NCBI GenBank assembly: GCA_018645005.1
Contig: JABGPJ010000066.1
Location: forward strand, 41,808-105,807
Origin: Deltaproteobacteria bacterium
GTDB taxonomy: Bacteria; SAR324; XYD2-FULL-50-16
Direction of reading: 5' to 3'
DNA: 64,000 nt
Shown here piece after piece: positions 43,386-63,614 of the stretch. A program made the translations under genes and the position numbers. Under the pieces are notes generated by a model. The model searched no databases. It had not been told where the DNA came from and saw nothing but the letters and a program-made list of their open reading frames with translations. The stretch's first letter is position 1, and every line of letters begins with the position of its first letter.

Positions 43386-43829
43386 ATGCCAAGTTTTGTG
43401 ATTACTGAGAAATGTGACGGTTGTAAAGGCCAGGACAAAACCGCTTGTATGTATATTTGTCCTCATGACCTGATGAAACTGGACATGGATTCAATGAAAG
43501 CATGGAACCAAGAACCGGTTCAGTGCTGGGAGTGCTATAACTGTGTAAAAATCTGCCCTCAACAGGCAATTGAAGTTAGATGTTATGCTGACTTTGCTCC
43601 ACTCGGGGCCGCATGTATCCCCATGAGAGGAACGGATACAATTATGTGGACCGTCAAGTTTCGCGATGGAATGATTAAAAGATTCAAGTTCCCGATCCGA
43701 ACTATCGAAGAAGGATCACTGTCAATTACTGATGGCGTGCAAGATGTCCAGGTTGACGTTAGCAAGATTAAAGAGCAGGGACTGTACACACAACAGGCTG
43801 CAGGCGTAACGTATCCCGTTCCGGCATAA
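43386..43829 (+). CDS. aprB: Adenylylsulfate (APS) reductase beta subunit
   Basis: MPSFVITEKCDGCKGQDKTACMYICPHDLM...CWECYNCVKICPQQAI...MWTVKFRDGMIKRFKFPIRT matches Desulfovibrio AprB almost motif for motif. Confidence 0.92.
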   Translation: MPSFVITEKCDGCKGQDKTACMYICPHDLMKLDMDSMKAWNQEPVQCWECYNCVKICPQQAIEVRCYADFAPLGAACIPMRGTDTIMWTVKFRDGMIKRFKFPIRTIEEGSLSITDGVQDVQVDVSKIKEQGLYTQQAAGVTYPVPA

Positions 43830-43899
43830 CTGTTGTTTTTGAATATTTTGATTTCACCGCTTATTTTACTCATTACAACCTTTTAGGAGTGTTAGCGTA

Positions 43900-45870
43900 A
43901 TGGAACCCAAAGTTAATAATTTTGAACATATTGAAAAGCCGGAGATCGTCGTCCATGAGACCGATCTTCTGTTGATCGGTGGTGGTATGGCAGCCTGTGG
44001 TACTGCATATGAAGCAGACAAATGGGCCAGCCCCCAGGGTATTAGAGTTACTATGGTTGATAAAGCAGCAGTTGATAGAAGTGGTGCTGTGGCCATGGGA
44101 CTTTCTGCAATCAATACGTATGTTGGCGAAAACAATGCTGCTGACTTCGTTAAGTACGTTCGACAGGACTTGATGGGTATTACCCGTGAAGACCTTGTTT
44201 ATGACCTGGCTCGCTGGGTTGATGATTCTGTTCATCTCTTTGAAGACTGGGGACTGCCCGTCTGGAAGAAAGGTGATGACAATGAATCTCTGGACGGACA
44301 TCAGGCTGCTAAAGCCGGCAAGCCTTCCCTGCGTGAAGGTGGAAAGCCAGTTCGTTCTGGTAAATGGCAGATCATGATCAACGGTGAATCCTACAAAGTG
44401 ATCGTTGGTGAAGCTGGAAAAGCTGGTCTGGAAGCAAACAGAGTTGCAACAGGTGTTGAGCAGAACCTTTTTGAGCGTGTTTTCATCATCAAAGTCCTGA
44501 ATGATAAAGATGATCCTACAAAAGTAGCTGGTGCAGTCGGTTTTAGCGTCAGGGAAAACAAGCTTTATATCTTTAAGTGCAAAACAGCACTTCTTGGCTG
44601 TGGTGGCTGTGTGAACTTCTTTAGAGGTCGTGCTACAGCTGAAGGTCAAGGTCGTGCATGGTTTCCTGTCTGGAACTCTGGCTCTAACTACGCCATGGGT
44701 GCTGAGGCTGGTGCTGAACTGGTCCTGATGGAAAATCGTTTCGTCCCTGCCCGTTTCAAGGATGGTTATGGTCCTGTAGGTGCTTGGTTTCTGCTTTTTA
44801 AAGCGAAGGCTACCAACGCACTGGGCGAAGATTACTGCGTGACAAACGCTGATGAAGCCAGAAAGTATTACGGCAAATATGTTGATGCGATCGGTACCTG
44901 TATGCGGAACCACATGATGATCATCGACATGAAAGCTGGTAAAGGTCCAATCAAGATTCATACTGATGTTGCTCTGCAAACACTGGGTGAAACTCTGGAC
45001 AAAAAAGCCATGAAGCATCTGGAAGCAGAAGCTTGGGAAGATTTCCTGGATATGTCAATATCTCAGGCTGGTGTATGGGCTGCTAACAACATGGCGCCTG
45101 AAAAAGTACCGTCTGAATTGATGCCTTCTGAGCCTTATATGTTGGGTTCACACGCTGGTTGCGCTGGCCTTTGGGTTAGTGGCCCTGGCGATTTCGGTCC
45201 TGCGGATTATTTCTGGGGATACAACAGAATGACCACCGTTAAAGGTCTGTTTACAGCTGGTGACGGTGCTGGTGCTTCCGGTCACAAGTTCTCTTCCGGT
45301 TCGCATGCTGAAGGTCGTGTAGCTGGAAAATCCATGGTTGCTTACTGCATGGATAATCCTGATATGCCTGCTTTCGCTGAAACAGAAGACGAATTGGCTG
45401 CTGAAGTATTCTTGCCAATGGAAACCTATGCCAAGTTCAGTGGTTATACCACTGATCCTGACATCAACCCCGAGTACATCCGTCCGGTTATGGTGCAGCA
45501 ACGTCTGCAGAAGATCATGGACGAGTATGTGGGTGGCACAAGTACTTACTACATGACCAGTGGAACCATGCTGACTGAAGGACTGAGCTACCTGGAAATG
45601 TTGAAAGAAGATGAAGTGCATATGGCTGCTGAGGATCTTCATGAACTGCTGAGAGCTTGGGAAAATCATCACAGAATTGTTGCTGCTGAAGCTCATGCAC
45701 AGCACATTCTGTTTAGAGAAGAAACTCGTTATCCTGGCTATTACTATCGTGGCGATTTTCTGGCTATTGATGATGAAAACTGGAAGTGTTTCACAAACTC
45801 AACCTATGATAAGAACACTAGAGAATTTAAAGTTTTCAAGCGTGATTATCATCAGATCATCCCTGAGTAA
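43900..45870 (+). CDS. aprA: Adenylylsulfate (APS) reductase alpha subunit
   Basis: FAD-binding LLLIGGGMAACG. Length 656 aa. Global similarity to AprA, including the C-terminal RYPGYYYR region. Immediately follows aprB. Confidence 0.95.
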   Translation: MEPKVNNFEHIEKPEIVVHETDLLLIGGGMAACGTAYEADKWASPQGIRVTMVDKAAVDRSGAVAMGLSAINTYVGENNAADFVKYVRQDLMGITREDLVYDLARWVDDSVHLFEDWGLPVWKKGDDNESLDGHQAAKAGKPSLREGGKPVRSGKWQIMINGESYKVIVGEAGKAGLEANRVATGVEQNLFERVFIIKVLNDKDDPTKVAGAVGFSVRENKLYIFKCKTALLGCGGCVNFFRGRATAEGQGRAWFPVWNSGSNYAMGAEAGAELVLMENRFVPARFKDGYGPVGAWFLLFKAKATNALGEDYCVTNADEARKYYGKYVDAIGTCMRNHMMIIDMKAGKGPIKIHTDVALQTLGETLDKKAMKHLEAEAWEDFLDMSISQAGVWAANNMAPEKVPSELMPSEPYMLGSHAGCAGLWVSGPGDFGPADYFWGYNRMTTVKGLFTAGDGAGASGHKFSSGSHAEGRVAGKSMVAYCMDNPDMPAFAETEDELAAEVFLPMETYAKFSGYTTDPDINPEYIRPVMVQQRLQKIMDEYVGGTSTYYMTSGTMLTEGLSYLEMLKEDEVHMAAEDLHELLRAWENHHRIVAAEAHAQHILFREETRYPGYYYRGDFLAIDDENWKCFTNSTYDKNTREFKVFKRDYHQIIPE

Positions 45871-45932
45871 TCCAGAGCCATCTGGTCTGGTATCTGCTGC
45901 GTAAGCTGCAGGTACCAGTTGTGTGAAAGACG

Positions 45933-45980
45933 ACAGAGTGGTGTCTTAGGAAAAACTTCGATGCCACTCTGTTTTTTTTA
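45933..45980 (+). terminator. Rho-independent terminator-like hairpin after aprA
   Basis: Stem ACAGAGTGG...CCACTCTGT followed by TTTTTTTT at 45972-45979. Read-through into qmoABC remains possible. Confidence 0.5.
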
Positions 45981-46119: not shown

Positions 46120-47373
46120 ATGGCAGAACAAAAAGGAAAGATATTAGTAATCGGTGGTGGAATCAGTGGTGTTTCTACAGCACTGGAAGCAGCCGAGGTC
46201 GGTTATGACGTAATTCTGGTTGAAAAAAATCCTTCCCTAGGAGGTCGAGTTTCCAGGTTTTATCAATATTTCCCAAAACTATGCCCTCCCCTTTGCGGAC
46301 TGGAAATCAACTACAAAAGACTGAAGCCGAACCCATATATACAAACACTCACAAACTCAGAAGTCGAGTCGATTTCCGGAGAACCTGGGAAATATCAGGT
46401 TAAAATCACGACAAATCCAACTTTCGTGAATGAGAAATGCGTCATTTGCGATAAATGTACGGAAGTTTGTCCATCGGAAAGAGAAAGTGAGCACAATTAC
46501 GGTTTGGATAAAACCAAAGCGATTTTTATACCGCATAAGATGGCCTATCCAGCTCGATTTACTATCGATAGGGACGCCTGCGATCCGTCATGCTCAAAAT
46601 GTGTTGAAGCATGCGAATACGATGCAATTGATCTGCAGATGCAACCCAAAACAACCGATATCGAAGTGGCAGCTATCGTTTATGCAACTGGATGGAAACC
46701 TTACGATGCCAATAAAATTGACAATCTTGGATTCGGGAAAGTTGAAAATGTGATCAACAACGTGATGATGGAGCGGATCGCTCATGGTCAAGGCCCCACT
46801 CAAGGCCAACTCCTGCGTCCGTCGGATCAGAAAAAAGCGGATTCGATCGCTTTCGTACAGTGTGCCGGGTCCAGGGATGAAAATCACCTGCCCTATTGTT
46901 CCGCTGTTTGCTGCCTGGCCTCATTGAAACAGGCCCGCTACGCAAGACTGGCGAATCCGGATGCAAAAATTTATATTTTCTACATTGATATTCGCTCACC
47001 TGGTAAATACGAAGATTTTGCGACTGAAATTCAAAAGGATGAGAACATCATCATGGTCAAAGGGAAAGTTGCCAAAGTGACCCAGGGCCAGGGCGGGAAT
47101 GTTGTTGTAGAAGCGGAAGATATCCTGAACGGCGGAAAAGTCAGCCTGGAAGTGGATATGGTTGTTTTGGCAACTGGAATGGAGTCCAGCATGAAGGGGG
47201 CAAATTTGCCGGATGTGGTTCAACTGGATGAAAACGGTTTTGTTGCACCAAATTTACAAAATCACGGGATCCTGTCCGCAGGAGTGGCAAAATTCCCAGG
47301 CGATGTTAACAGTTCTATTCAAGATTCAACCGGAGCAGCTTTAAAAGCGATTCAAACTGTAGTGGGGAATTAA
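46120..47373 (+). CDS. qmoA: Quinone-interacting membrane-bound oxidoreductase subunit A (HdrA-like flavoprotein)
   Basis: ILVIGGGISGVSTALEAAEVGYDVILVEK FAD motif and HdrA-like Cys clusters. Directly downstream of aprBA. Confidence 0.9.
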   Translation: MAEQKGKILVIGGGISGVSTALEAAEVGYDVILVEKNPSLGGRVSRFYQYFPKLCPPLCGLEINYKRLKPNPYIQTLTNSEVESISGEPGKYQVKITTNPTFVNEKCVICDKCTEVCPSERESEHNYGLDKTKAIFIPHKMAYPARFTIDRDACDPSCSKCVEACEYDAIDLQMQPKTTDIEVAAIVYATGWKPYDANKIDNLGFGKVENVINNVMMERIAHGQGPTQGQLLRPSDQKKADSIAFVQCAGSRDENHLPYCSAVCCLASLKQARYARLANPDAKIYIFYIDIRSPGKYEDFATEIQKDENIIMVKGKVAKVTQGQGGNVVVEAEDILNGGKVSLEVDMVVLATGMESSMKGANLPDVVQLDENGFVAPNLQNHGILSAGVAKFPGDVNSSIQDSTGAALKAIQTVVGN

Positions 47374-47377
47374 AAAT

Positions 47378-49534
47378 ATGGAAAAAAAGATAGGAGTTTA
47401 TATTTGTTCTGGATGCGATATTGATAAAGCGGTAGAGACAGAAGGACTGGAAAAAGTGGCGGCCAATGAATACAAGGTCCCGGTTTGTAAAACCCATCCT
47501 TTTCTGTGCAGCCAAGAAGGAATTCAGCTTTTAAAAGACGACCAGAAAAACGAAGGTGTTAATTGTTTTGTGATTGCTGCCTGCTCATCCCGATATCATC
47601 AGAACGATTTTGATATGGGCAAGGAATCTATAATAGTCAGAACCCCCATTCGTGAACAGGTTGCCTGGATTCTGGAGCCGCGGGATGCGGAAGGCAAAGT
47701 TAACGAAGATACACAGATGGCCGCGGAAGATTACATACGCATGTACACTTCCAGAGTCCGTTTGACCAATATCCCGGAACCGTATCAGCAGGAAGAAACA
47801 GATAAGAGTCTGATCGTTATCGGCGGAGGGGTTGCCGGGATGACTGCCTCTATCGAAGCGGCTAAAGCCGGGTATAAAATTAACCTGATTGAGAAGTCCA
47901 ACCAACTGGGTGGATTTGCTTTAAATGACAAAAGCATTATTCCGACACAGATGCCTTTTGAAGATCTGATGCCGAATAATGTGAGCGAATTGATTGCTGA
48001 AACAGAAGCTATCAAAAATATCACTGTGCACAAGTCCAGCACAGTTGCATCTATTGCGGGGGAACCCGGTGCGTTTCAAGTAAAACTGGAAAATGCTGCA
48101 GCAACTGAGTTTAAAGCGGGCGCTGTTGTGATGGCTTCTGGAGCAACACCCTATGATGCGAGTAAATTAACAGATCTGGGTATTGCTTTTGACAATGTTG
48201 TCAGCAGCATCGAATTTGAGGAGATGGCAAAATCGGGTGCCTTGAAAAGAGCGGATGGACAGCCGGTGAAAAGTGTGGCTTTTATCCAATGCGCTGGGTC
48301 CAGGGATGAAGACCATCTGCCTTACTGTTCTTCTACCTGCTGCATGACATCCTTGAAACAGGCGGCCTATGTCAGGGAACTGGATAGTGAAGCCAAAGCA
48401 TATATTATATATAAGGACATGCGTACGCCAGGTCAGTATGAGGCTTTCTATCGTAAACAGCAGGACGACCCTGGTGTTTTCATGACGAAGGGAAAGGTTG
48501 TGGCAGTCAATGAACTGTCTGACAAAAAAGTAGGCATTGATGTCGATGAGTCACTATTGGGCGAAAATATTCAGCTGCAGGCTGATCTGGTGGTGCTCGC
48601 TATCGGCCAGGTGCCTTCTACTCTGGAAGAGGGTTCAATCCTGAACCTGCAGTATCGACAGGGACCGGATATGCCGGACTTGAAGTATGGATATCCAGAC
48701 TCCCATTTTGTCTGTTTTCCGTATGAAACTAGAAGAACTGGAATTTATGCTGCAGGAACGGTCCGACAACCAATGGATAATAATTTCGCTGTCAGGGATG
48801 CTACAGGTGCGGCTCTAAAGGCGATACAGGCGGTTGAAATGGCCGATCTCGGTCAACGGATGCACCCCAGATCAGGCGATTTGACTTTTATGTCACCGGA
48901 TCTTTCTCGCTGTACAGACTGTAAGCGATGTACAGAAGAGTGCCCTTTCGGGGCCATTGATGAAAATGAAAAAGGGACCCCTCTGCCAAACTCGGCTCGT
49001 TGTCGAAGTTGTGGTATTTGTATGGGAGCCTGTCCTGAGAGAGTGATCTCATTTGCAGACTATAGTGTTTCGATTCTGTCTGAAATGATCAAAAATATCG
49101 AAATTCCCGATGAAGATGACGAAAAACCAAGAGTGGTTGTTTTCATCTGTGAAAATGATGCGATGCCGGCACTTGAGCAAATGGCCATGGATCGACAAAA
49201 AATCAGTCCGTTTGTTCGGTTTATTCCATTGAGATGTCTGGGTGGTAATAACCTGGTCTTCGTATCGGATGCCCTGTCTGTTGGCGTTGACGGTATGATG
49301 TATATGGGCTGCAAGCATGGTGATGATTATCAGTGCCACTTCATCAAGGGTAGTGAATTGTGTGACGAGCGGCTGGGCAAGGTTCAAGAAACCATCGGTA
49401 GACTCGCGCTGGAATCGGAAAGGATTCAGCAGTTCGAAATCAGCTTGAATGATGCACCAAAGCTGCCTCAAATAATCGCTGATTTTATGGAAGAGCTGGA
49501 AGATTACGGCCCCAATCCGTTTAAGGGTATGTAA
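47378..49534 (+). CDS. qmoB: Quinone-interacting membrane-bound oxidoreductase subunit B (HdrA-like with MvhD-like C-terminus)
   Basis: 718-aa protein. Second FAD motif VIGGGVAGMTASIEAAKAGY. Ferredoxin-type CxxCxxCxxxCP motifs. C-terminal Cys-rich MvhD-like region. Confidence 0.9.
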   Translation: MEKKIGVYICSGCDIDKAVETEGLEKVAANEYKVPVCKTHPFLCSQEGIQLLKDDQKNEGVNCFVIAACSSRYHQNDFDMGKESIIVRTPIREQVAWILEPRDAEGKVNEDTQMAAEDYIRMYTSRVRLTNIPEPYQQEETDKSLIVIGGGVAGMTASIEAAKAGYKINLIEKSNQLGGFALNDKSIIPTQMPFEDLMPNNVSELIAETEAIKNITVHKSSTVASIAGEPGAFQVKLENAAATEFKAGAVVMASGATPYDASKLTDLGIAFDNVVSSIEFEEMAKSGALKRADGQPVKSVAFIQCAGSRDEDHLPYCSSTCCMTSLKQAAYVRELDSEAKAYIIYKDMRTPGQYEAFYRKQQDDPGVFMTKGKVVAVNELSDKKVGIDVDESLLGENIQLQADLVVLAIGQVPSTLEEGSILNLQYRQGPDMPDLKYGYPDSHFVCFPYETRRTGIYAAGTVRQPMDNNFAVRDATGAALKAIQAVEMADLGQRMHPRSGDLTFMSPDLSRCTDCKRCTEECPFGAIDENEKGTPLPNSARCRSCGICMGACPERVISFADYSVSILSEMIKNIEIPDEDDEKPRVVVFICENDAMPALEQMAMDRQKISPFVRFIPLRCLGGNNLVFVSDALSVGVDGMMYMGCKHGDDYQCHFIKGSELCDERLGKVQETIGRLALESERIQQFEISLNDAPKLPQIIADFMEELEDYGPNPFKGM

Positions 49535-49705
49535 CCCGTGAACATTTTGAATTTTTGATTGAACATTCACTGTCATTTTGACCAATTCCAGTTTGTGTCA
49601 AAATGACATCTGTTATCTGACAATCTGTGGAACGTTAGTGATTTATTGGATAGTGTCTATATCCTGAGAAGATTGTCGAATACCAAATAATTGGAGGTTT
49701 TTCGA

Positions 49706-50914
49706 ATGTCAGACCGAGTATTAATCAATGCGGATTTGAAGTTTGTAGAGGGAGTAATGAAAGCAGGTGGGGAAGACCTGAATAAATGCTATCAATGCTC
49801 AACCTGCACGGTCGTTTGCCCACTTACTCCTGAAGGGGCTCCGTTCCCCAGAAAAGAGATGATAGCCGCACAGTGGGGTATCAAAGACAAACTGATCAAA
49901 AGTATGGACCCCTGGCTGTGCTTCCACTGTAATGACTGTTCAGAGCAGTGTCCGAGAGGAGCTAAACCAGGTGACGTGATGGCTGCGATTCGCAACATGA
50001 TTATTGCAAATGTAGCGGTTCCGTCCTTTCTGGGCAAATTAACCCAATCTGCCGGTGGCGCACTGGGACTGTTACTGTTCCCGATCATCCTGATTGCCGC
50101 TGTGATTTTTATGGTTAATGGTGGGGAAATGGCGTTTTTGGATAATCCGGTAATCGATTTTCACAAAAATATGATTTCTCAACTGGCCATTGAAATGATT
50201 TATATTCCGGCACTATTCTTTGGAATAATTACGGGTCTGTTAGGGGTCAAAAATTTGATAGCGGGCTTAAGCGAAACCTATCCTAAGACTGATAAAGGGG
50301 AAGCCCTGGTACCTGCCATCATCGGAACGGTGAAAGATATTCTGAGCCATAAAAAATTCAGGGAATGTGGGGTGAACCAGAGTCGGAATATTGCGCATAT
50401 GTTTCTGTTTTATGCTTTTATCGGCCTGGCGATCACGACCGCAGGTGTAACCGGGATTTATTATATCAACCTGTTTGCCGGCTCCAATGTTGTGACGCCG
50501 ACGCCACTGCCGTTCTTTCATCCCATCAAAATCATTGGTAACGTCAGTGCTCTGGCAGCTTCAATTGGTATCCTGTTGATTGTTTACAGAAGATTGACCG
50601 CCGAAAACGTCGGGAATACGGTTGCGTTTGACTGGATTTTCATCGTGAACATTCTGCTAATTGTAGCAACGGGTATCTTGGCACAAACAGTTCGGGTGGC
50701 TGGAAGTCAGGCTTCATACTTCATCTATTATTGCCATCTGGTTTTAGTTTTCTATCTCTTCATGTATATGCCACACTCGAAGTTCGGTCATATGTTTTAT
50801 CGAACTGCCGCTTTGGTCTATTCACGCTACTCAGGTCGTGAGAAAAGTATCGGGATGACTTTTCTGGAAGGGAAACAACAAGAACAACTTGAAGAATCAG
50901 ACAAAGTTGCATAA
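49706..50914 (+). CDS. qmoC: Quinone-interacting membrane-bound oxidoreductase subunit C (ferredoxin domain plus membrane heme b domain)
   Basis: N-terminal CYQCSTCTVVCP and CFHCNDCSEQCP iron-sulfur motifs, then six predicted transmembrane helices. Start set to ATG 49706 because a GGAGG site sits 8 bp upstream; the ORF track TTG at 49691 overlaps that site. Confidence 0.85.
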   Translation: MSDRVLINADLKFVEGVMKAGGEDLNKCYQCSTCTVVCPLTPEGAPFPRKEMIAAQWGIKDKLIKSMDPWLCFHCNDCSEQCPRGAKPGDVMAAIRNMIIANVAVPSFLGKLTQSAGGALGLLLFPIILIAAVIFMVNGGEMAFLDNPVIDFHKNMISQLAIEMIYIPALFFGIITGLLGVKNLIAGLSETYPKTDKGEALVPAIIGTVKDILSHKKFRECGVNQSRNIAHMFLFYAFIGLAITTAGVTGIYYINLFAGSNVVTPTPLPFFHPIKIIGNVSALAASIGILLIVYRRLTAENVGNTVAFDWIFIVNILLIVATGILAQTVRVAGSQASYFIYYCHLVLVFYLFMYMPHSKFGHMFYRTAALVYSRYSGREKSIGMTFLEGKQQEQLEESDKVA

Positions 50915-52280: not shown

Positions 52281-52317
52281 TGATTGATTGATCACTGGAA
52301 AGTGTCTTTTAGCTTTA

Positions 52318-54971: not shown

Positions 54972-55081
54972 GGCTGATCCAAAAATGACCAAATGAATCT
55001 TAAAGATTGATTCATTCAGACTTGAATCGAATATTTTGAATATGCTAATCAGAAAATATATCACTTTTTATTGGAGAAGCT

Positions 55082-57796
55082 ATGAGCCAAACTAATCCGT
55101 TCCCCTACTATGTGGGAATAAATAGTCTAGAAGAGATAGCGAATAAACAGACACGCTGTGTTGTGATGAATATTCTTGGTGGTGAGAGTAAAGGTGTTAC
55201 CCCTACATCACACGAGTTCAGCGGTGGAAACATTGTTGCGGGTGTCCAGTATGGACGAGCCGGCAAAATGGAAACAAAAATCGGTGATATTCCGGTTTTT
55301 GGAAGTATCAAAGAGATCGTTGATGCAGGCATCGAGTTTGACACGGGTGTGATTTATCTTCCACCAACTGCTGTTGCTGCCGCTGCTGACGAATTGATCG
55401 CGCACAATCCGAAACTGACCAAGATCGTTGTCCTGACTGAAAAAGTCAGCGTGAAGGACTCCCAGTTTATCCGTGCAATAGCCCAGAGCAATCAGATTGA
55501 CGTTTTTGGTGGGAACTGCCTGGGTATCGGGAATTCCTGGGAACAGGTTCGTGTGGGTGGCGCTTTGGGTGGAAAATCACCCGGTGAGAGTCTGGTGAAA
55601 GGAAGTGTGGCTGTTTACAGTAACTCTGGGAACTTCAGTACAACCATTCCGGAATATTTAAAAACAGGTGGTTGGGGAACATCAACGGTGCTGAGCAGTG
55701 GAAAAGACCTCTATATCCAGTTCGCTCTGGCAGAATTCCTGAACGCAGCTGAAAATGATGCACGCACCAAGGGTATCATGATGTATATCGAGCCGGGCGG
55801 ATATTATGAAAAACAAGCCCTGGACTGGATTGAAGAAGGTCTGTACAAGTTTACCAAGCCTATCGTTTGTTGTGTCACCGGACGCTGGAAAGCCAACCTG
55901 TCACGTGCGGTCGGCCATGCTGGCGCAATCGCTGGTGGTGGTGATGATGCGCTGGCCAAAGAGGGGTGGTTTGATACCTATTTTGGAGTGGGTGAGTTTG
56001 ATCCAGCCAACCCCAAAGTCTCAAAAAAGGGTGTTCGCATCGCTTCTATCCAGGATGCTCCGACAGCCATGACAGCGATCATGAAAGAGATCGGTGTTGA
56101 GCCGGATTTTGTATCATCAGGTGACCTAAGCCTGAAGCCCTGGTTTGTGAATGACCAGGATGCCGGAATCCCGGAAAAACTGCAAATGCAGAAAGTTGAA
56201 GCCATGGCGCCTTACAATGATGCCATCAAAAAACTGGGAAACCAGGTGGGTGCGCAACTGTCACGGGAATCCATGCGGAATAAATCAGGTGCCAGTATGA
56301 TGAACCCCAAATCTCAGATTACCGAAGTTCATGGGGTTTCTGTGCTGGATTTGGTCAAGGAAAGCTTTGCTGCGACAAACGTCTTTGCTCTGATAAAAGA
56401 GCTGCCCGCTGCTGCAGATATGCCGATGGTTAACGCGATCATGAACTACTACACGGCCATTGGTGCTGAGAACATGGATGTGGCTGTAAAAGCCCGTGCC
56501 AACGATTCATTGCCCAACGCTTATCTGGGTGCTGCTGTGATGATGAATGGTGACAGACAACTGTTCAAAGATTACCGAGCCATGACCAACACCATGATCG
56601 ACCTGTTCTATACCCAGGTCTGGAATGACAAGTCTGTCAATGAGGCTGCCATTGCTAAAGCGCTTGAGCAAAAAGGTGCCATGCCGGAAGGGGAAGCCAG
56701 TGCACAGGACGCCAAAGTGGCTGATTTCTTTGTTGACGTGATTGAGAAAAACAACCTCCAGAGTGTGTTTACTGAATACGCCATTAAATACGCAGCAGAA
56801 AACAAGGTGAATAAGCTGGACTTGCTGATGGCTGCCATGCTGCTGACACTTTCCTGGAAGGCCCTGACAGACAGGCAGATCCCACAGGAAACAGCGGCTG
56901 ATCTCGGTAACTACCTGTTCCTCAATGGTGTGATTGTGGGTTGTTCAGCTCCGGCTTATCCAAATAACGATTTCTGGAACAAGCTGACCTCACTGGAGGA
57001 CCTCAGTCTGTTGAATATGGATTTCTCTGATTCGATTTTCAGGATTCTCTTTAACAGGGAACCGGCAGAGAAAGAACTGTTTGCACTGAACGCCATGTTG
57101 AATCTGACGATCTCCAACGGACCAGGTACGGTTAGTGCCAAGGGATCCAAGGAATCTGTCAGTGGTGGTAACCCCATCGCTTCCTGCTATGTCGGTTGGA
57201 TGGAAAACACCGGTCGTGATCACGGTGGAAACGGATTTGAGGCCATCAAGTATGTGAATGACAACATGGGCGCTTTTGATCCGTACAAGGCGACATCTGA
57301 AGAGATGAATGCAGCCATGGAAGAAATTGCACAGAAAGCTGCAGAAGAATATGGCTCATTGAAGAAAAAAGCCAAGGAAGAAGGTGACATGAAGTACTTC
57401 AAGGTGCCTTGTGTGAATCATCCTGTCTTCAAAGGCAAGCCGATTAACTACGATCCTCGAGAGACTCACATTCGAGAACTGTTCAAGGAAAGAAATGAAA
57501 TAAATCCCTTCCAGGAATTTTATCATGTTCTTGTCCAGAAACTTTACGATGTGGGTGCAACCAAAAACGTGTTCTGCGTCAACATCGATGCAGTTATTGC
57601 CACCATCTCACTGGATCTGATTTGGAAAGATATCAAGAGTGGGGCCATGCCTGAAAAAGATATGCAGGACATCGCTTTTACACTCTTCCAGTTTGCACGG
57701 ATGGTGGGTTGTTCAGCTGAAATCGCCGATCATAAGAGCCGTGGAAACCCGATCGATTGTAGAACTCCTGCCAGCCAATGTTTCTGGGTTGGTTAG
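55082..57796 (+). CDS. 904-aa fusion of a succinyl-CoA-synthetase-alpha-like CoA-binding/ligase domain, a phospho-histidine loop and a citrate-synthase-like domain (ATP-citrate lyase alpha / citryl-CoA lyase-like)
   Basis: SucD-like CoA-binding N-terminus. A GHAGA histidine loop near residue 279, as in ATP-citrate lyase. The C-terminal region carries citrate synthase catalytic signatures: NHPVFKGKPINYDPRE (like GHAVLRKTDPR) and CVNIDAV (like PNVDAH). Confidence 0.55.
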   Translation: MSQTNPFPYYVGINSLEEIANKQTRCVVMNILGGESKGVTPTSHEFSGGNIVAGVQYGRAGKMETKIGDIPVFGSIKEIVDAGIEFDTGVIYLPPTAVAAAADELIAHNPKLTKIVVLTEKVSVKDSQFIRAIAQSNQIDVFGGNCLGIGNSWEQVRVGGALGGKSPGESLVKGSVAVYSNSGNFSTTIPEYLKTGGWGTSTVLSSGKDLYIQFALAEFLNAAENDARTKGIMMYIEPGGYYEKQALDWIEEGLYKFTKPIVCCVTGRWKANLSRAVGHAGAIAGGGDDALAKEGWFDTYFGVGEFDPANPKVSKKGVRIASIQDAPTAMTAIMKEIGVEPDFVSSGDLSLKPWFVNDQDAGIPEKLQMQKVEAMAPYNDAIKKLGNQVGAQLSRESMRNKSGASMMNPKSQITEVHGVSVLDLVKESFAATNVFALIKELPAAADMPMVNAIMNYYTAIGAENMDVAVKARANDSLPNAYLGAAVMMNGDRQLFKDYRAMTNTMIDLFYTQVWNDKSVNEAAIAKALEQKGAMPEGEASAQDAKVADFFVDVIEKNNLQSVFTEYAIKYAAENKVNKLDLLMAAMLLTLSWKALTDRQIPQETAADLGNYLFLNGVIVGCSAPAYPNNDFWNKLTSLEDLSLLNMDFSDSIFRILFNREPAEKELFALNAMLNLTISNGPGTVSAKGSKESVSGGNPIASCYVGWMENTGRDHGGNGFEAIKYVNDNMGAFDPYKATSEEMNAAMEEIAQKAAEEYGSLKKKAKEEGDMKYFKVPCVNHPVFKGKPINYDPRETHIRELFKERNEINPFQEFYHVLVQKLYDVGATKNVFCVNIDAVIATISLDLIWKDIKSGAMPEKDMQDIAFTLFQFARMVGCSAEIADHKSRGNPIDCRTPASQCFWVG

Positions 57797-58040: not shown

Positions 58041-58379
58041 ATGGGTTTTGAACTGAATGGCACAACTTATGAGACTGACGAAGATGGATACTTGATCAAC
58101 ATCGGTGGATGGAACGAAGATGTGGCCCATCACCTGGCTGAAGAAGAAGAGATTCCAGAACTGACCGAAAAACACTGGCAGATTATTAATTTTCTGAGAG
58201 GCTACTACGAAGAATACCAGATCGCGCCGATGATCAAGATTTTGATCAAAGCCATCATGAAAGATATGGATCTTTCCAAGCGTGATGCTTCAAAGATGCT
58301 GTATGAACTGTATCCTGCAGGACCTGCAAAGCAAGCCTGTAAAATTGCCGGACTGCCTAAGCCGACCGGTTGCGTCTAG
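58041..58379 (+). CDS. dsrC: Dissimilatory sulfite reductase subunit DsrC
   Basis: Ends with the diagnostic ...CKIAGLPKPTGCV C-terminal arm carrying both conserved cysteines. Start set at ATG 58041, which has a GGAG site upstream and gives the typical 112-aa size. Confidence 0.9.
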   Translation: MGFELNGTTYETDEDGYLINIGGWNEDVAHHLAEEEEIPELTEKHWQIINFLRGYYEEYQIAPMIKILIKAIMKDMDLSKRDASKMLYELYPAGPAKQACKIAGLPKPTGCV

Positions 58380-58512
58380 CCCATTTCGCATGATAAATGC
58401 CCCGGGATCATTGAATTTGATGATCGTCTAGGGGAAGTTTTTTCAATAATCGCCAACAAAGGGTGATACAAATTTACTAATTTGAGATTGCCCAGCTATT
58501 TGGAGAGGATTA

Positions 58513-59727
58513 ATGTCAGATACACCAATGATGGACGAACTGGAAAAAGGTCCATGGCCAAGTTTCGTCAGAGAAATTAGAAGAGCCGGTAAGCAAAGTG
58601 CTACCGCAAGAGATTTAATTAATATTCTTGAACTGTCTTACAAAGATAAAAAAACCCACTGGAAACATGGTGGTGTTGTCGGTGTCAGGGGATACGGTGC
58701 CGGTGTTATCGGCCGCTATGTCGATGATCCCGTCCAGTTTCCCGGCGTTGCCCATTTCCATACGGTTCGTGTGAACCAGACCTCCGGTTTTGTGTACAAT
58801 ACCAAAGGACTGGGCGAGATCATGGATATCTGGGACAAACGTGGTTCCGGTATGACCAACATGCACGGTTCTACGGGTGACCTGGTTCTTCTAGGAACAA
58901 CCTCAGAACAACTGGATCCGATTTTTACTGACATCTCCCAGAAAGGTTGGGACTTGGGTGGTTCCGGATCGGATTTGAGAACACCAAGCTGCTGCCTGGG
59001 TCCTGCACGCTGTGAATACGCCTGTATCGACACACTGGCAATTACACGGGAGTGTACAAACTATTACCAGGATGAATTGCATCGCCCGGCGTTTCCATAC
59101 AAGTTTAAGATTAAAGTCGCCGGTTGTTCAAACGACTGTGTGGCATCGATTGCCCGTTCCGACCTCTCAATTATCGGAACCTGGAAAGATGATATCCGCA
59201 TTGATCAGGACGAAATTGCAAATTACGTCAAGGGTGGCGGAATTGATATCATGAAGGAAGTGGTCATGATGTGCCCAACCCAATGTATCGATTTTGATGG
59301 CACCAAAATGGAGATCGACAACAGCAACTGTGTTCACTGTATGCACTGCATCAACAAATTGACTAAGGCACTGCGTGTTGGAACAGATCAAGGTGCAACA
59401 ATTCTGCTGGGTGCTAAGGCGCCGATTGTTGAAGGAGCGATGCTTGCTTCCGTGATTGTACCCTTTATGAAACTGGAAGAACCATTTGAAAATCTGAAAG
59501 AATTGATCGAAGCTCTCTGGGAAGTCTGGGATGAAGATGGAAAGAACAAGGAGCGGATTGGTGAATTCATGGAAAGAATGGGGAAAGGTGAATTTGTTGA
59601 AGCTGTCGGAGAACAACTCGCTGACGGTGAATGCGGAATCGAAATGACCTCTCAAATTGATATGATTAACCATCCGAGAGAGAACCCATACATTTTCTAC
59701 GATGAGTATCTTGAAGAAGAAGGCTAG
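58513..59727 (+). CDS. dsrA: Dissimilatory sulfite reductase alpha subunit
   Basis: LEKGPWPSFV...HWKHGGVVGV...GVAHFHTVRV...LTNMHGSTGD...DELHRPAFPYKFKIKVAGCSNDCVASIARSD matches Desulfovibrio DsrA over nearly the full length. Confidence 0.95.
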   Translation: MSDTPMMDELEKGPWPSFVREIRRAGKQSATARDLINILELSYKDKKTHWKHGGVVGVRGYGAGVIGRYVDDPVQFPGVAHFHTVRVNQTSGFVYNTKGLGEIMDIWDKRGSGMTNMHGSTGDLVLLGTTSEQLDPIFTDISQKGWDLGGSGSDLRTPSCCLGPARCEYACIDTLAITRECTNYYQDELHRPAFPYKFKIKVAGCSNDCVASIARSDLSIIGTWKDDIRIDQDEIANYVKGGGIDIMKEVVMMCPTQCIDFDGTKMEIDNSNCVHCMHCINKLTKALRVGTDQGATILLGAKAPIVEGAMLASVIVPFMKLEEPFENLKELIEALWEVWDEDGKNKERIGEFMERMGKGEFVEAVGEQLADGECGIEMTSQIDMINHPRENPYIFYDEYLEEEG

Positions 59728-59832: not shown

Positions 59833-60906
59833 ATGGCAGAAGAAAGAATTACTGACCAGGGTGCGAAGGACTATAAAGAGTTCCTGCATCCGGTTATGGT
59901 AAAAAATTACGGACAGTGGAAATACCACGAAATTCTCAAGCCTGGTGTTCTGGTCCATGTCGCTGATTCCGGAGATAAGATTTACAGTGTCCGGGTCGCT
60001 TCACCCAGGCTGTTGAGCACGGTGAGTATTCGGTTTTTCATGTCTGTTGCGGATAAGTATTGTGACGGTTTCCTGAGATGGACAACCCGAAACAACGTTG
60101 AGTTCCTGACTGATAAGGAAGAAAATGTTGAACTGATCATCAAGGCTGTGAACGACGATGGCTGGCCGGTCGGTGGAACAGGAAGAACTGCTTCCAACGT
60201 TGTGCATACACAGGGTTGGGTTCATTGTCATACATCGGCAACTGATGCTTCCGGTATCGTAAAATCACTGATGGATGAGGTTTTCGAGGATTTTACATCA
60301 GAGAATCTTCCCGGAAAACTGAAACTGGCTCTGGCCTGTTGTCTGAATATGTGTGGTGCGGTCCACGCATCTGACATCTCCATTCTCGGTATTCACCGTC
60401 GACCCCCCAAGGTAGATTATCACTTGCTGGGTCAGATCTGTGAAATTCCGACAACTATCGCAGCTTGTCCGACTGGAGCGATCCGTCAGGATATCGTCGA
60501 TGGTGTGAAAGCGATGAAAATAATTGAAGATCAGTGTATGTTCTGCGGTGCCTGCTACACAGCTTGCCCCAACATGCCTCTGGCAGATGCCCTGAATGAC
60601 GGTGTCTCTATCTGGGTCGGTGGGAAGATTGCAAACGCCAGATCCAAACCCGGCTTCACCAAGCTGGTTGTCCCTTTTCTTCCGAATAATCCGCCGCGAT
60701 GGCCGGAAGTTATTGATGCCGTGAAGAAAATTATTCAGGTATACAAAGATAACGGAAGAAAATGGGAACGCCTTGGCGAGATGATCGATCGGATTGGTTG
60801 GGCGAAGTTTTTTAAGCTGACAGGTTTTGCGTTTACCAAATATCATATTGATGATTATAAATTGGCGACCAAATCCTATAATATGTCGGCTCATGTAAGA
60901 TTTTAG
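59833..60906 (+). CDS. dsrB: Dissimilatory sulfite reductase beta subunit
   Basis: [59 protein letters not shown]...[11 protein letters not shown] matches DsrB. Siroheme/iron-sulfur Cys clusters are present. Confidence 0.95.
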
Positions 60907-60915
60907 GAGTTAAAA

Positions 60916-61188
60916 ATGGCAGTAGATTTAAATGTAGTAGCTGAAGATATGTTTGAAATGGTTAAAGAAGTTGCCGGCATCAAAAAATTAAAACCGGGTG
61001 ACGTTTTGAAAGCCATGGTCAAGAAGTATGGGGATCAGGGATTCACGAAGAAAGATGCGAAAGCAGCTATCCGCATTCTGATTGATGGTGAAAGGCTGGT
61101 ATATACCTATATCAACGGCTCTTTTGTTGAACTGCCCCATGAAGACGGCGCCGCTATGGCCGCTAATGAGGCTGCAAGGAATAAATAA
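60916..61188 (+). CDS. dsrD: DsrD-like small winged-helix protein
   Basis: 90-aa ORF starting 10 bp after dsrB, the canonical dsrD position. LVYTYINGSFVEL resembles the DsrD wing region. The sequence match is weaker than for dsrAB. Confidence 0.65.
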   Translation: MAVDLNVVAEDMFEMVKEVAGIKKLKPGDVLKAMVKKYGDQGFTKKDAKAAIRILIDGERLVYTYINGSFVELPHEDGAAMAANEAARNK

Positions 61189-61264
61189 AGTTTGAAGTCC
61201 CGGCTTTTCTTCGATCGTTTGGAAAAGCCGGAACCTCATCCAATGATATATTGACCGGAAAAGC

Positions 61265-61627
61265 ATGTTTGTAATAACTGAACGCGCGGCAGAGCAGTTT
61301 AAAAACTCTGCTGATGCAGTGGGTGATGATACCGTTTCATTGCGGATCTCCGCTAGAATATCCGTTCCCGGCGGTATGAAGTATAATATGGGCTTTGACC
61401 ATCAAAAAGAGGATGACACAGCCTGTGAGATATCCGGGATAAAGTTTCTACTGGATCCGGAATCGGTTAAAAATACAAAGGATATGTTGGTTGACTTTCG
61501 AGACTTTGAGGGCGCTGAACAATTTGTATTTCTGAACCCCAATGATAAAAAAGAAAACTGTGAAACATCACCCGATGGGTGTGATCCCGATGGTAACCCA
61601 ACCTGTAAAACCTGTACAGGGGATTAG
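61265..61627 (+). CDS. HesB/IscA-family (A-type carrier) protein with atypical Cys-rich C-terminal tail
   Basis: IscA-like core (SLRISARISVPGGMKYNMGFD...FVFLNPN) but the canonical CGCG tail is replaced by NCETSPDGCDPDGNPTCKTCTGD, which has 5 Cys. Confidence 0.55.
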   Translation: MFVITERAAEQFKNSADAVGDDTVSLRISARISVPGGMKYNMGFDHQKEDDTACEISGIKFLLDPESVKNTKDMLVDFRDFEGAEQFVFLNPNDKKENCETSPDGCDPDGNPTCKTCTGD

Positions 61628-61937
61628 GGCTGGCCACCAGGAGAACAGCACTTCCCGGACGGAGAGGTAAAGTACGACCGCCGTTGGAATCCGGTTTTCA
61701 AGAAAACCAGTGTAAGGTCCGAAGACTTCTTGCCCGGTTGGGCCTGAGCTCATCTGACAAACAGGCAATTCAGATTAGCTGCCTGTATTTAACTAGAGGC
61801 TGACCCCGCTGGGAATCGCTACAAACATTCTCCGGTGAACGTTAATTAATTCATGGTCGGTGGATATGGTAATTTCAAATTGCCTGGAAACTGCCTATTT
61901 TCTTTGATTGTGAAAAATTTTTTAAACAGGAAGAAAT

Positions 61938-63614
61938 ATGGCCATCGTTGTTAGAAAGATAAAAAGACCAGTTAGAGCCCATATCGGCGGCGGGAAAAAA
62001 TCCCAGAGTACGAAGCTGCCACGATATGTCGCCAAGCGGCCGCCATGTACTGATACATGTCCAAGCAGCGAGGATATCCGTGGGTATCTGACATATATTG
62101 CTCAGTCTGAAGAGTATGGACGGACTTTCGAAGAGTCCATGGAGCAAGCATGGCATATGCTGACAGACAAAAACCCGATGCCGGCTGTCATGGGAAGGGT
62201 TTGTCCTCACCCATGTGAAACAGCATGTAATCGTAAAGATAAAGACGGCGCTGTCAGTATTAATAAAGTAGAACTGTCGATTGGACAATTCGGGCTGGAA
62301 AACAAACTGGCTCTGAAAGCATTAACGGAAGAGAAGACGGGCAAGAAGATTGCTGTTATCGGTAGTGGACCGTCCGGTATCTCATGCGCTTACCAACTCG
62401 TCAGAAAAGGTCACTCTGTGACTGTTTTTGAATCCAAGTCAGAACCAGGTGGAATGATTCGCTGGGGTATTCCCGCATATCGACTGCCAAGAGATATTAT
62501 TGCAGCAGAATATCAAAGAATTTTTGATCTGGGCGTTGAATTCAAACCGAATACCAAGGTTGGAAAAGATATCAGTCTGGATCAACTGAAAAGTGATTAT
62601 GATGCGATTTATCAAGCAATTGGTGCTCAGGTTGGTTGGTCTCTCGGATTAGACGGAGAAGATTCAGCTAATGTTTATACGGGTGTTGAATTCCTGTACA
62701 AGCATAATATGCAGGAACAGATGAATATTGGTGATAAGGTGATCGTCGTGGGTGGTGGTGACACTGCTATGGACGTTGCCAGAAGCTGCAAACGGATGGG
62801 AGCTGATGTGACGGTTGTTTATCGCCGGAGCAGAAACGAAATGCCCGCTATTGAAGAAGATATCGTCGGTGCTGAAGAAGAAGGGATTAACTTCAATTTC
62901 CTATGTACACCAATTAAACTACAGGTTGCAGACGGAAACGTTACCGGGATGACATGTGTACGCATGGAACTGGGTGAGCCGGATGAAAGTGGTCGGGCCA
63001 GCTTTTCTGTGATTGATGGGTCCGAGTTTGATATCGCAGCCACCTCTTTAATTCCTTCCATCAGCCAGGAAGCTGATTTTGAGGGTATGGAAGAGATGAA
63101 AAATGAGAAAAACTGGACGTCTATTGCCACAGATTTCGGTCGTTTGAGTGAAGATGGCAAAATCTGGTCTGGTGGGGATGTGACCAGAGGCTTGGGGTTA
63201 GTGACTGAGGCTGTTGGTGACGGACGGATTGCTGCTGAAGATATTGATCGCTTTGTGATGGGCGCTGAATATGAGAAGCCGGAAGTCATGCCGGTGATCA
63301 ATTCTGCGACGATGCACATGCAACATTATGCAGATGCAGCTCGCAATTCCATTGGTGAAAAACCCGGTGCTGAAAGGATCTCTGACTTTAATGAGTATAT
63401 TATTCCTTTCACCATTGAAGCGATCAAAGCAGAAACAGCTCGCTGTATGAGTTGTGGTTCCTGTTTTGATTGTGAAAACTGCTGGAAGTTCTGTGGTGAT
63501 GGTGCTGTCAATAAGCTCGCCAAGGGGCAGCACTTTGAATTCAATCTGGATAAATGTATTGGTTGTAGTAAATGTATGGAAGAGTGCCCATGCGGACTGA
63601 TTGACATGATCTAA
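61938..63614 (+). CDS. GltD-family NAD(P)H-dependent iron-sulfur flavoprotein with C-terminal 2x[4Fe-4S] ferredoxin domain (DsrL-like architecture)
   Basis: GltD N-terminal Cys pattern (CTDTCP...RVCPHPCETAC). FAD motif IAVIGSGPSG. Second dinucleotide motif VIVVGGGDTAMD. A C-terminal extension carries CMSCGSCFDCENC and CIGCSKCMEECP. Confidence 0.6.
   Translation: MAIVVRKIKRPVRAHIGGGKKSQSTKLPRYVAKRPPCTDTCPSSEDIRGYLTYIAQSEEYGRTFEESMEQAWHMLTDKNPMPAVMGRVCPHPCETACNRKDKDGAVSINKVELSIGQFGLENKLALKALTEEKTGKKIAVIGSGPSGISCAYQLVRKGHSVTVFESKSEPGGMIRWGIPAYRLPRDIIAAEYQRIFDLGVEFKPNTKVGKDISLDQLKSDYDAIYQAIGAQVGWSLGLDGEDSANVYTGVEFLYKHNMQEQMNIGDKVIVVGGGDTAMDVARSCKRMGADVTVVYRRSRNEMPAIEEDIVGAEEEGINFNFLCTPIKLQVADGNVTGMTCVRMELGEPDESGRASFSVIDGSEFDIAATSLIPSISQEADFEGMEEMKNEKNWTSIATDFGRLSEDGKIWSGGDVTRGLGLVTEAVGDGRIAAEDIDRFVMGAEYEKPEVMPVINSATMHMQHYADAARNSIGEKPGAERISDFNEYIIPFTIEAIKAETARCMSCGSCFDCENCWKFCGDGAVNKLAKGQHFEFNLDKCIGCSKCMEECPCGLIDMI

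Follow-up and report, generated by a model that had tools for sequence, protein, structure and literature searches.

Several kinds of linkage between genes of dissimilatory sulfur metabolism have been described. Linkage of aprBA with qmoABC is textbook knowledge (PMC3333476). On environmental fosmids, dsr genes stand beside sulfate-activation and adenosine 5'-phosphosulfate (APS)-reduction genes (Mussmann et al. 2005, cited in PMC6018805), and single-region dsr clusters are known from candidate phyla, including a sulfate-reduction locus of mosaic origin in Ca. Rokubacteria (Anantharaman et al. 2018, PMC6018805). The same study described Ca. Lambdaproteobacteria, now placed in the SAR324 phylum, as having dsrEFH and lacking sat, apr and qmo. 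Here, we describe a sulfate-respiration gene cluster at the 3' end of a 64,000-nucleotide (nt) stretch of contig JABGPJ010000066.1, which we refer to as the window. We consider it likely that this is a chromosomal cluster of approximately 27 kb, composed of several operons, which encodes a full dissimilatory sulfur pathway, is mosaic in origin, has been kept by vertical descent, and works in the reductive direction.

From 42.4 kb to the end of the window, all substantial genes lie on the + strand. We scored gene identities against the curated cut-offs of NCBIfam and against Pfam, and took solved relatives from PDB sequences. The cluster genes within the window are listed below.

42381-43166, + strand: CxxCxxCC (YkgJ-type) zinc/iron-chelating domain protein, 261 amino acids (aa) (PF03692, E 1.7e-11)
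43386-43829, + strand: aprB, APS reductase beta subunit (TIGR02060, 191.4 bits, cut-off 135.65)
43900-45870, + strand: aprA, APS reductase alpha subunit (TIGR02061, 894.8 bits, cut-off 641.75)
46120-47373, + strand: qmoA, HdrA-like flavoprotein (top NCBIfam matches HdrA/HdrA2, below their cut-offs; called by position and architecture)
47378-49534, + strand: qmoB, HdrA-like, MvhD/FlpD-like domain at the C-terminus (assigned from domain make-up and position)
49691-50914, + strand: qmoC, membrane subunit (NF038018 equivalog, 401.8 bits, cut-off 300)
51015-52280, + strand: sat, sulfate adenylyltransferase of Desulfobacterota type, 421 aa (NF003166, 458.5 bits, cut-off 387)
52409-53329, + strand: ppaC, family II (Mn-dependent) inorganic pyrophosphatase (NF003877, 427.5 bits, cut-off 283)
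53742-54971, + strand: aclS, ATP-citrate lyase (ACL)-like small subunit, 409 aa, ATP-grasp and citrate-binding (PF08442, PF24948, PF16114)
55082-57796, + strand: aclL, ACL-like large subunit, 904 aa (PF02629, PF13607, PF00285)
58041-58379, + strand, start probable: dsrC, 112 aa (TIGR03342; PF04358, E 7e-42)
58513-59727, + strand: dsrA (TIGR02064, 531 bits, cut-off 392.85)
59833-60906, + strand: dsrB (TIGR02066, 479.4 bits, cut-off 341.5)
60916-61188, + strand: divergent DsrD homologue, 90 aa, winged helix, Lys-rich, no Cys (deep profile match)
61265-61627, + strand: IscA/HesB-like protein, 120 aa (TIGR00049, 50.7 bits, below the cut-off of 58.8; PF01521 weak)
61938-63614, + strand: dsrL, type 2 (DsrL domain order and YRR motif)
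63673-64000, + strand: 5' part of dsrT, cut by the window end (RsbRD_N domain, PF14361, E 1e-16)

Sat, AprA, AprB, QmoC, DsrA, and DsrB all exceed curated equivalog or subfamily cut-offs (six of six), and the top solved relatives of AprA and DsrA are D. gigas AprA (3GYX, 852 bits) and A. fulgidus DsrA (3MM5, 508 bits). The libraries used hold no dedicated curated model for QmoA or QmoB, and these two were called by architecture and by their position between aprA and qmoC. QmoB matches HdrA2 over residues 242-712 and VhuD over residues 584-716, only 4 nt separate qmoA from qmoB, and QmoA is 73-79% identical to its orthologues in five related loci (L006-L010). The sat open reading frame (ORF) opens at TTG 50988, but its real start is ATG 51015. 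DsrC ends in ...CKIAGLPKPTGCV, which contains both redox cysteines in the arrangement CysB-X10-CysA; these two C-terminal cysteines set DsrC apart from TusE/RspA-type relatives.

A reading made earlier from this DNA alone (the sequence-only reading) had placed aprBA, qmoABC, sat, ppaC, dsrC, dsrAB, dsrD, and a DsrL-like gene on the + strand between 43386 and 63614. These gene calls and their positions hold. Among the calls most open to doubt, dsrC is backed by its PF04358 match and C-terminal Cys pair, and the DsrL-like gene, on weaker grounds, by its domain order and YRR motif; 'dsrD' survives as a divergent homologue recognized by deep profile comparison, not as a canonical family member, since it has no Pfam or NCBIfam match. 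The earlier gene list omitted approximately 4.3 kb of non-sulfur genes within the locus; the ACL pair (53742-57796), 3.9 kb of coding DNA between ppaC and dsrC, was absent from it, as was the IscA-like gene between dsrD and dsrL. It also held that the entire core pathway falls within these 20 kb. The listed genes are indeed there, but dsrTMKJOP falls beyond the edge. In described clusters dsrT sits directly before dsrMKJOP (PMC6018805), and the gene tables of contigs L001-L004 show dsrM-K-J-O-P after dsrT on three of them, L001, L002, and L004, each encoding cluster proteins 100% identical to those of the window. The genes for the DsrMKJOP complex thus lie outside the window and were found only on contigs with identical proteins. 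The pathway is complete only with dsrTMKJOP past the window edge counted in, and the full cluster, from the CxxCxxCC gene to dsrP, measures approximately 27 kb. In the public collection, 79 indexed blocks contain the DsrL protein.

The closest described systems share parts of this arrangement. The 2005 fosmid clusters, as the citing paper presents them, are alike in that dsr is joined to sulfate-activation and APS-reduction genes in uncultivated prokaryotes. Set against that account, the locus described here differs in keeping its housekeeping context across species with no sign of mobility, and in having ppaC, the ACL-like pair, the IscA-like gene, and DsrL-2 beside the sulfur genes. In contrast to the clusters of PMC6018805, sat, apr, and qmo are here physically joined to dsr, the cluster is without dsrEFH, and ACL and ppaC, which lie outside the clusters described in that study, lie inside this one. 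The sets of dsr genes reported for SAR324 (Diao et al. 2023, PMC10591310; Klier et al. 2024, PMC11406059) share the dsrAB-dsrD-...-dsrL arrangement and DsrL-2, and such genomes were treated in these studies as reductive or of mixed type. Both analyze dsr genes only, and linkage to sat, apr, qmo, ppaC, or ACL is not discussed there. In Table S1 of Diao et al. (PMC10591310), two reductive SAR324 metagenome-assembled genomes (MAGs) of the order XYD2-FULL-50-16 have zeros in the first six gene columns, ahead of those for dsr, which we take to be sat, apr, and qmo.

The aprBA-qmoABC(-sat) module offers a further comparison. The order aprB-aprA-qmoA-qmoB-qmoC-sat is the same on a 2.46-Mb contig (L090), in a locus labelled Nitrospinota (L092), and in a Desulfoluna/Desulfobacteraceae locus (L011). 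In those three the module ends after sat, whereas here it runs on, on the same strand, into ppaC, ACL, and the whole dsr set; unlike its module relatives, this locus also has a sat of a different lineage from its apr and qmo neighbors. In the literature searched, with incomplete coverage, neither an ACL inside a sulfate-reduction cluster nor such a sat replacement is described.

We scanned one genome per species with Sat, which gave 80 loci, and mapped these with all cluster proteins. Thirty-five species-representative loci outside the clade formed by the window and its relatives retained a full 10 kb on either side of sat. There, sat stands alone in 20, with apr/qmo in 10, with dsrMKJOP in 4, and with dsrAB in 1. 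None of the 35 has both apr and dsr near sat, and none has ppaC or ACL. These zero counts indicate that the consolidation is uncommon, and the claim that it is real and unusual relative to Desulfobacterota stands. So does the observation that ppaC directly follows sat, which we saw in every clade member.

The two genes between ppaC and dsrC together look like an ATP-citrate lyase in their predicted activity. The top solved relative of the small subunit is the large subunit of Hydrogenobacter citryl-CoA synthetase (6HXQ_B, E 1.5e-31), with ACL chains matched to 7e-13. The N-terminal third of the large subunit is a CoA-ligase alpha module with the phosphohistidine loop GHAGA at residue 278, and its C-terminal part is a citryl-CoA-lyase/citrate-synthase-like module with HGG at residue 714. 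Residues 552-885 match PF00285 (E 3.7e-8), and an alignment of the C-terminal part with citryl-CoA lyase 6HXP (E 6e-4) sets GRDHGGN against GSAHGGA; the Asp equivalent to AclA D543 (PMC13147460) was not located in the large subunit. This subunit matches 6HXQ_A at E 8e-34, compared with 5e-13 for Chlorobium AclA (6HXJ_B), and among solved structures both subunits are nearer Hydrogenobacter citryl-CoA synthetase than Chlorobium AclAB. Approximately 350 residues in the mid-section of the 904-aa protein (~290-640) are without Pfam coverage.

Outside the clade, AclL is closest to sequences from Desulfosarcina (72% identity) and Desulfobacter (70%), and is 56% identical to that of a Lambdaproteobacteria/SAR324 MAG and 55% to that of the L090 genome. 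The Desulfobacter and Desulfosarcina enzymes have the same two-gene make-up (~400 aa and ~905 aa). In Desulfobacter (L093) the pair stands alone among housekeeping genes, whereas here it is embedded between ppaC and dsrC; in the L090 genome it lies ~650 kb away from apr. Among sulfate reducers, ACL activity is known classically from Desulfobacter. The enzyme yields ATP during acetate oxidation in D. postgatei (Moller et al. 1987) and serves the reductive tricarboxylic acid (TCA) cycle in D. hydrogenophilus (Schauder et al. 1987; both as cited in PMC9768450 and PMC12137691). By analogy, the enzyme encoded here could cleave citrate for a reductive TCA cycle or synthesize citrate with a gain of ATP, as in Desulfobacter postgatei. 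The name 'type II ACL' has been given to the unusual ACL of sulfur-oxidizing tubeworm symbionts (PMC3522073). That enzyme is of the citryl-CoA synthetase/citryl-CoA lyase (CCS/CCL)-like kind, and the window pair is likened to it by architecture, not by clade placement.

The 90-aa protein encoded 9 nt after dsrB required deeper comparison. It contains 14 Lys and Arg residues and no Cys, and its AlphaFold2 model is a winged helix (predicted local distance difference test score, pLDDT, 87.6). It has no match to PF08679 or any other Pfam family even at E <= 10 and none in NCBIfam. A word-indexed search returned 46 close homologues, none of which carries a Pfam domain (0/46); a profile of these close homologues gave 0.3% probability against the canonical Desulfurivibrio DsrD (L067) and did not retrieve DsrD 1UCR from the PDB sequences, and a Foldseek search of the model against PDB gave generic winged helices only (E > 1e-3). 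A profile search at full sensitivity, however, recovered 138 representative homologous proteins. Among 60 that were full length, the commonest Pfam family is PF08679, DsrD (9/60, best E 4.4e-6), and hhalign of the resulting 60-sequence profile against Desulfurivibrio DsrD gave 80% probability (E 1.4e-5) over 63 columns. Within the wing, LVYTYINGSFVEL, residues Y63, T64, Y65, N67, and G68 do not vary across the family. The wing aligns with ...VFWSSGSTTMY but does not preserve YWSSGSTT, the motif found there in Desulfobacterota DsrD, and hhalign places the family wing GRxVYTYxGGSYIE over GKMVFWSSGSTTMY.

Members of the DsrD family are described as Lys-rich, Cys-free winged-helix proteins of ~80 aa, encoded directly 3' of dsrB, that activate DsrAB (Ferreira et al. 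2022, PMC8794893). On the basis of profile-profile comparison, fold, and context, we conclude that the 90-aa protein is a true but divergent DsrD and, by analogy, a probable DsrAB activator. The family comprises 138 representative clusters of ~70-90 aa, with the consensus ...GKKxLKPxDLxK...K.AIRxLIDSGRxVYTYFGGSYIELPHxEGAA, and PF08679 recognizes only ~1/7 of it. PF08679 therefore overlooks a broad branch of DsrD, and surveys of dsrD based on it would under-count. This matters because genome studies commonly decide which way sulfur metabolism runs by whether dsrD is found. A second dsrD-like copy (P0040, L089 10001-10276), 71% identical to the window's, occurs on JAHJTV010000018.1 in the same MAG as L010. 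It lies far from dsrAB, beside genes for a TauE-family exporter, a pyridoxal phosphate (PLP)-dependent decarboxylase, a glutamate symporter, and cobalamin biosynthesis, a setting that hints at a role tied to sulfite or organosulfonates.

The DsrL encoded by the cluster has the expected domain order, with Fer4_20 at residues 33-118, Pyr_redox_2 at 137-429 with an embedded Pyr_redox at 267-338, Fer4_21 at 508-557, and C-terminal Cys clusters at 503-519 and 540-552. Its linker is ~70 aa, compared with roughly 100 aa given in PMC7596348. A YRR motif in the NAD(P)-binding domain defines NADP(H)-dependent DsrL-2 as opposed to DsrL-1 (Loffler et al. 2020, PMC7596348), and this motif is present here at residues 295-297, within VVYRRSRNE. 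The gene is complete and lies 1 kb 3' of dsrB, and its neighbors are the IscA-like gene and dsrT, not genes for pyruvate/ketoisovalerate:ferredoxin oxidoreductase. The 310-nt spacer before dsrL (61628-61937) contains two blocks, TCATGGTCGGTGGATA and CCTGGAAACTGCCTATTTTCTT, that are invariant across six species and are not recognizable as a sigma-70 or sigma-54 promoter.

The following sites are putative transcription signals, proposed from intergenic folding (ViennaRNA; predicted free energy, dG) and from conservation between species.

43244-43271, + strand: promoter-like TTGACA-16 nt-TAAAAT, ~115 nt 5' of aprB
45932-45979, + strand: terminator- or attenuator-like hairpin after aprA, dG -23.9 kcal/mol, followed by a T-run
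52310-52352, + strand: hairpin after sat, dG -19.6 kcal/mol, followed by TTTT
58400-58443, + strand: hairpin after dsrC, dG -14.6 kcal/mol, followed by TTTTTT
63623-63661, + strand: intrinsic-terminator-like hairpin and U-run between dsrL and dsrT, dG -18.6 kcal/mol, z -5.5

Both hexamers before aprB fall in blocks that are invariant across five species in an alignment of the spacer between the CxxCxxCC gene and aprB, and none of 200 shuffled sequences folds as well as the hairpin between dsrL and dsrT. The hairpins and U-runs after aprA, sat, dsrC, and dsrL, together with the promoter-like element before aprB, suggest several operons and not one. The units are probably aprBA; qmoABC(-sat); ppaC; aclSL; dsrC; dsrAB with the dsrD-like and IscA-like genes; dsrL; and dsrTMKJOP. 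An operator shared among the units was tried as a candidate and rejected: the Rex/CRP-type sequence TTGTGAA-N6-TTCACAA, with up to 3 mismatches, had 3 matches compared with 6.7 expected by chance, and CRP/Rex-like operators are not enriched in the intergenic regions of the cluster. Rfam gave nothing at gathering score anywhere in the window.

The histories of the cluster genes differ. The Sat tree separates L090 and L092 from the window clade together with all Desulfobacterota (100/100), and the window clade nests within Desulfobacterota, beside Desulfobacteraceae and Desulfoluna. The AprA and QmoB trees instead separate the window clade together with L090, L091, and L092 from Desulfobacterota (100/100 each). 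Pairwise identities show the same division. Proteins on L090 are 79% (AprA), 77% (AprB), and 64% (QmoB) identical to the window's, compared with 41% for Sat; in L092, AprA is 72% and Sat 56% identical; in the Desulfobacterota loci, AprA is 55-58% and Sat 68-81% identical. Identity among AprA homologues falls off gradually: of the named sequences outside the clade, the nearest belong to Nitrospinota (72%) and Ca. Magnetoovum (69%), with Chlorobaculum and Thermodesulfovibrionales at 68% each. In both L090 and L092, the cluster ends at sat. Because the Sat bipartition conflicts with that of AprA and QmoB, the simplest reading of these sequences is that sat was replaced in place, with a Desulfobacterales-type gene taking the resident position after qmoC. 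The sequence-only reading had proposed testing whether the gene trees co-vary; AprA does so with QmoB, and Sat does not.

Taken together, the locus suggests the following mode of working. Sat would activate sulfate to APS, with the adjacent PpaC removing pyrophosphate and so pulling the reaction forward. AprBA would reduce APS to sulfite with electrons from QmoABC, and DsrAB would reduce sulfite onto DsrC, with the divergent DsrD as probable activator and DsrL-2 as a NADPH-linked electron donor. DsrMKJOP, encoded just past the window, would regenerate DsrC. The ACL-like enzyme may interconvert citrate, CoA, and ATP with acetyl-CoA and oxaloacetate and could thereby link the TCA cycle and ATP balance to the locus. 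As to provenance, the backbone aprBA-qmoABC is of the Nitrospinota/Nitrospirota/Chlorobi type, sat of Desulfobacterota type, ACL Desulfobacter/Desulfosarcina-like, and the dsr block of SAR324 type. We infer the reductive direction, from sulfate to sulfide, from gene content, namely the linkage of ppaC to sat, the sulfate-reducer Sat, the DsrD homologue, the YRR-type DsrL, and dsrT.

The alternative that survives best is an oxidative or disproportionating run of the same genes, in which Dsr would convert sulfide or sulfur to sulfite, AprBA and Sat would carry sulfite to sulfate, and ACL would serve CO2 fixation through the reductive TCA cycle. We regard this as rather unlikely. It would accommodate the closest AprA relatives outside the clade, which include Chlorobaculum, magnetotactic Nitrospirota, and Nitrospinota, as well as the presence of DsrL and the CCS/CCL-like 'type II' ACL known in tubeworm symbionts (PMC3522073); Desulfurivibrio-type organisms, moreover, oxidize sulfide with a reductive-type gene set (PMC8794893). 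A pyrophosphatase after sat, however, would waste the pyrophosphate that Sat needs for ATP synthesis. The Sat is of sulfate-reducer type, the DsrL is the NADP(H)-type DsrL-2, the cluster contains no dsrEFH, and the closest ACL relatives are in the sulfate reducers Desulfobacter and Desulfosarcina. A DsrD homologue also follows dsrB, whereas dsrD is absent from sulfur oxidizers with oxidative-type rDsrAB (PMC8794893).

Several points weigh against the reductive, mosaic reading of the cluster that we favor. The relatives of its AprBA include sulfur oxidizers such as Chlorobaculum. DsrAB of DsrD-encoding SAR324 is 'transitional', lying between reductive and oxidative types, DsrEFH is encoded on other scaffolds in many DsrD-encoding SAR324 genomes, and DiSCo types SAR324 DsrC as oxidative (Klier et al. 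2024, PMC11406059). The clade is uncultivated, and its SAR324 affiliation rests on submitters' labels: the window proteins exactly match a consecutive series of NCBI entries (MBT3225318-360) whose MAGs were submitted as 'Deltaproteobacteria bacterium', while the label 'SAR324 cluster bacterium' is attached to members of the 90% identity clusters of the window DsrL and AclS, and one of the nearest relatives also has a SAR324 label. An origin in Nitrospirota of the Ca. Magnetobacterium kind, which the joint presence of ACL with dsr and apr might suggest, was set aside in view of these labels. The trees are neighbor-joining (Kimura distances, 100 bootstraps) with 18-22 taxa, not maximum likelihood with wide sampling. 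L090 and L092 are linked to the window clade by the apr locus only, so the polarity of the sat replacement rests mainly on the nesting of the window Sat in the Desulfobacterota radiation. Finally, a generic scan of 44-64 kb was not above shuffled sequence, with 30 promoter-like sites compared with 32 and 19 terminator-like sites compared with 17; the signals listed above were drawn instead from intergenic folding and cross-species conservation.

The sequence-only reading had raised lateral transfer and the idea of a transferable metabolic island; that such an island for sulfate respiration was acquired here in recent times we now consider very improbable. Foreign, Desulfobacterales-like affinities of the Sat and ACL genes would fit an island, as would the raised codon-usage distance from the flanks of aprA, sat, ppaC, and dsrC, and similar clusters have been interpreted as units transferred together (Mussmann et al. 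2005, cited in PMC6018805). At least six other species, however, share the gene order. Five species-representative MAGs (L006-L010, Sat 83-92% identical) carry rbgA-CxxCxxCC-aprBA-qmoABC-sat-ppaC-aclS-aclL-dsrC-dsrAB-dsrD-iscA-like on one strand, and a sixth, more distant species (L094, AclL 75%) keeps the order from aprA through dsrO. The upstream rbgA-CxxCxxCC junction is identical in five of the six, which are all those in which it is visible. Among the six, the cluster proteins have diverged to 58-98% identity. An identical arrangement in relatives, inherited vertically, is what the sequence-only reading had itself named as evidence against an island. Base composition, which the sequence-only reading had suggested examining as a sign of foreign origin, shows no shift. 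GC content is 46.1% in the cluster and 45.0% in flanking genes, GC at third codon positions is 45.5% compared with 47.2%, and the sliding composition profile has no step. The raised codon-usage distance falls on genes expected to be highly expressed, and occurring as it does with no GC shift it is what high expression would produce. There are no tRNA genes in the window or in L001, L002, and L094, and no integrase or transposase at the upstream border or 3' of dsrP in L001, where the neighbors are ABC-transporter genes (flanking direct repeats were not searched). A transferable island is thus already largely refuted.

That the block is purely ancestral, with all genes having co-evolved since before the clade and no lateral input, is a shade less credible still. 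The trees of Sat, AprA, and QmoB are broadly similar inside the clade and all pair the window with GMC6, and the order aprBA-qmoABC-sat recurs in L090, L092, and L011. Against this stand the fully supported conflict between the Sat and the AprA/QmoB bipartitions, the gulf between Sat (41%) and AprA (79%) in comparison with L090, the greater identity of AclL to Desulfobacteraceae (70-72%) than to the L090 genome and the SAR324/Lambdaproteobacteria MAG (55-56%), and the ACL pair being unlinked from apr in the L090 genome. Lateral input would then have been old and on the scale of single genes, involving sat and probably aclSL, while the block as a whole does not appear discordant. The question of ancestral or lateral origin that had been put for this locus therefore receives a divided answer: the cluster does not have a single history, but it is inherited vertically within the clade, and the pairing of the window with GMC6 in all three trees is consistent with vertical descent after assembly. 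We conclude that the cluster is an old mosaic that has since passed down the clade by vertical descent. An artefact of assembly or binning, joining fragments of different organisms, deserves almost no credence, since, although all data are metagenome assemblies and the affinities of the cluster genes are mixed, identical junctions occur in independent assemblies (ENA, JGI, NCBI, Logan) on contigs of up to 150 kb and recur in six further species, and composition is uniform across the junctions.

The borders of the cluster and its accessory genes carry further features. The CxxCxxCC gene lies directly 5' of aprB on the same strand in L006-L010, and it adjoins aprB divergently in the Desulfoluna/Desulfobacteraceae loci L011-L015 and L082, where the protein is 32-37% identical. 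The PF03692 gene is thus a neighbor of aprB that is kept across phyla, and it may be an unrecognized accessory of the APS reductase module. The IscA-like gene follows the dsrD-like gene in all clade members and in a distant relative (L086). In an alignment of seven orthologues, the first IscA cysteine is lost, with Met or Ile instead, and an added C-terminal tail contains four conserved Cys (99, 106, 114, and 117 in the window). The protein may resemble the IscA-like DsrR of sulfur oxidizers. On L086 (1-3650; DsrA 59%, DsrB 69%), dsrC-dsrAB-dsrD-like-iscA-like is followed directly by dsrT without dsrL. Because dsrL is missing there between the IscA-like gene and dsrT, dsrL may be a later insertion into this dsr block.

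Upstream, the window contains genes usual for a Gram-negative chromosome: rbgA, cca, tlyA, trkA, trkH, galE, plsB, priA, tgt, lpxA, and lpxB. The cluster does sit among core chromosomal genes, as had been noted for rbgA, cca, and trkAH, and further housekeeping genes flank it. A CRP/FNR-family regulator gene (39787-40518, - strand) lies 2.9 kb 5' of aprB, between cca and rbgA. Farther upstream, 10814-14131 encodes a 1105-aa protein in which glycoside hydrolase family 57 (GH57) and branching-enzyme C-terminal domains are confined to the C-terminal 430 residues; its N-terminal ~670 residues have no Pfam match.

The arrangement of the cluster raises a more specific scenario, which we offer as speculation that is more likely wrong than right. 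A SAR324-type lineage may have turned an inherited apr-qmo and 'transitional' dsr backbone, possibly oxidative, into a self-contained module for sulfate respiration by acquiring, at one site, three functions of Desulfobacterales type: a sulfate-reducer Sat replacing the resident one, a pyrophosphatase, and a Desulfobacter-type ACL running towards citrate, as it does in D. postgatei. If this is true, substrate-level phosphorylation through the citrate-forming ACL would recover some of the ATP that sulfate activation costs.

The locus places a complete pathway in a phylum, SAR324, that has mostly been discussed as sulfur-oxidizing or sulfite-reducing, and in it a pyrophosphatase and an ATP-dependent citrate enzyme are physically linked with sulfur respiration. 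The locus also offers a clear in-place swap of one pathway gene, sat, whose neighbors keep another history. Evidence on the assembly of the sulfate-reduction pathway has so far come mostly from separate gene trees. This cluster provides a testable case for a pathway put together piece by piece and then kept by vertical descent, rather than moved wholesale as an island, and it bears on the long-running questions of how the pathway was assembled and spread and of the lineages that stand between reductive and oxidative Dsr metabolism.

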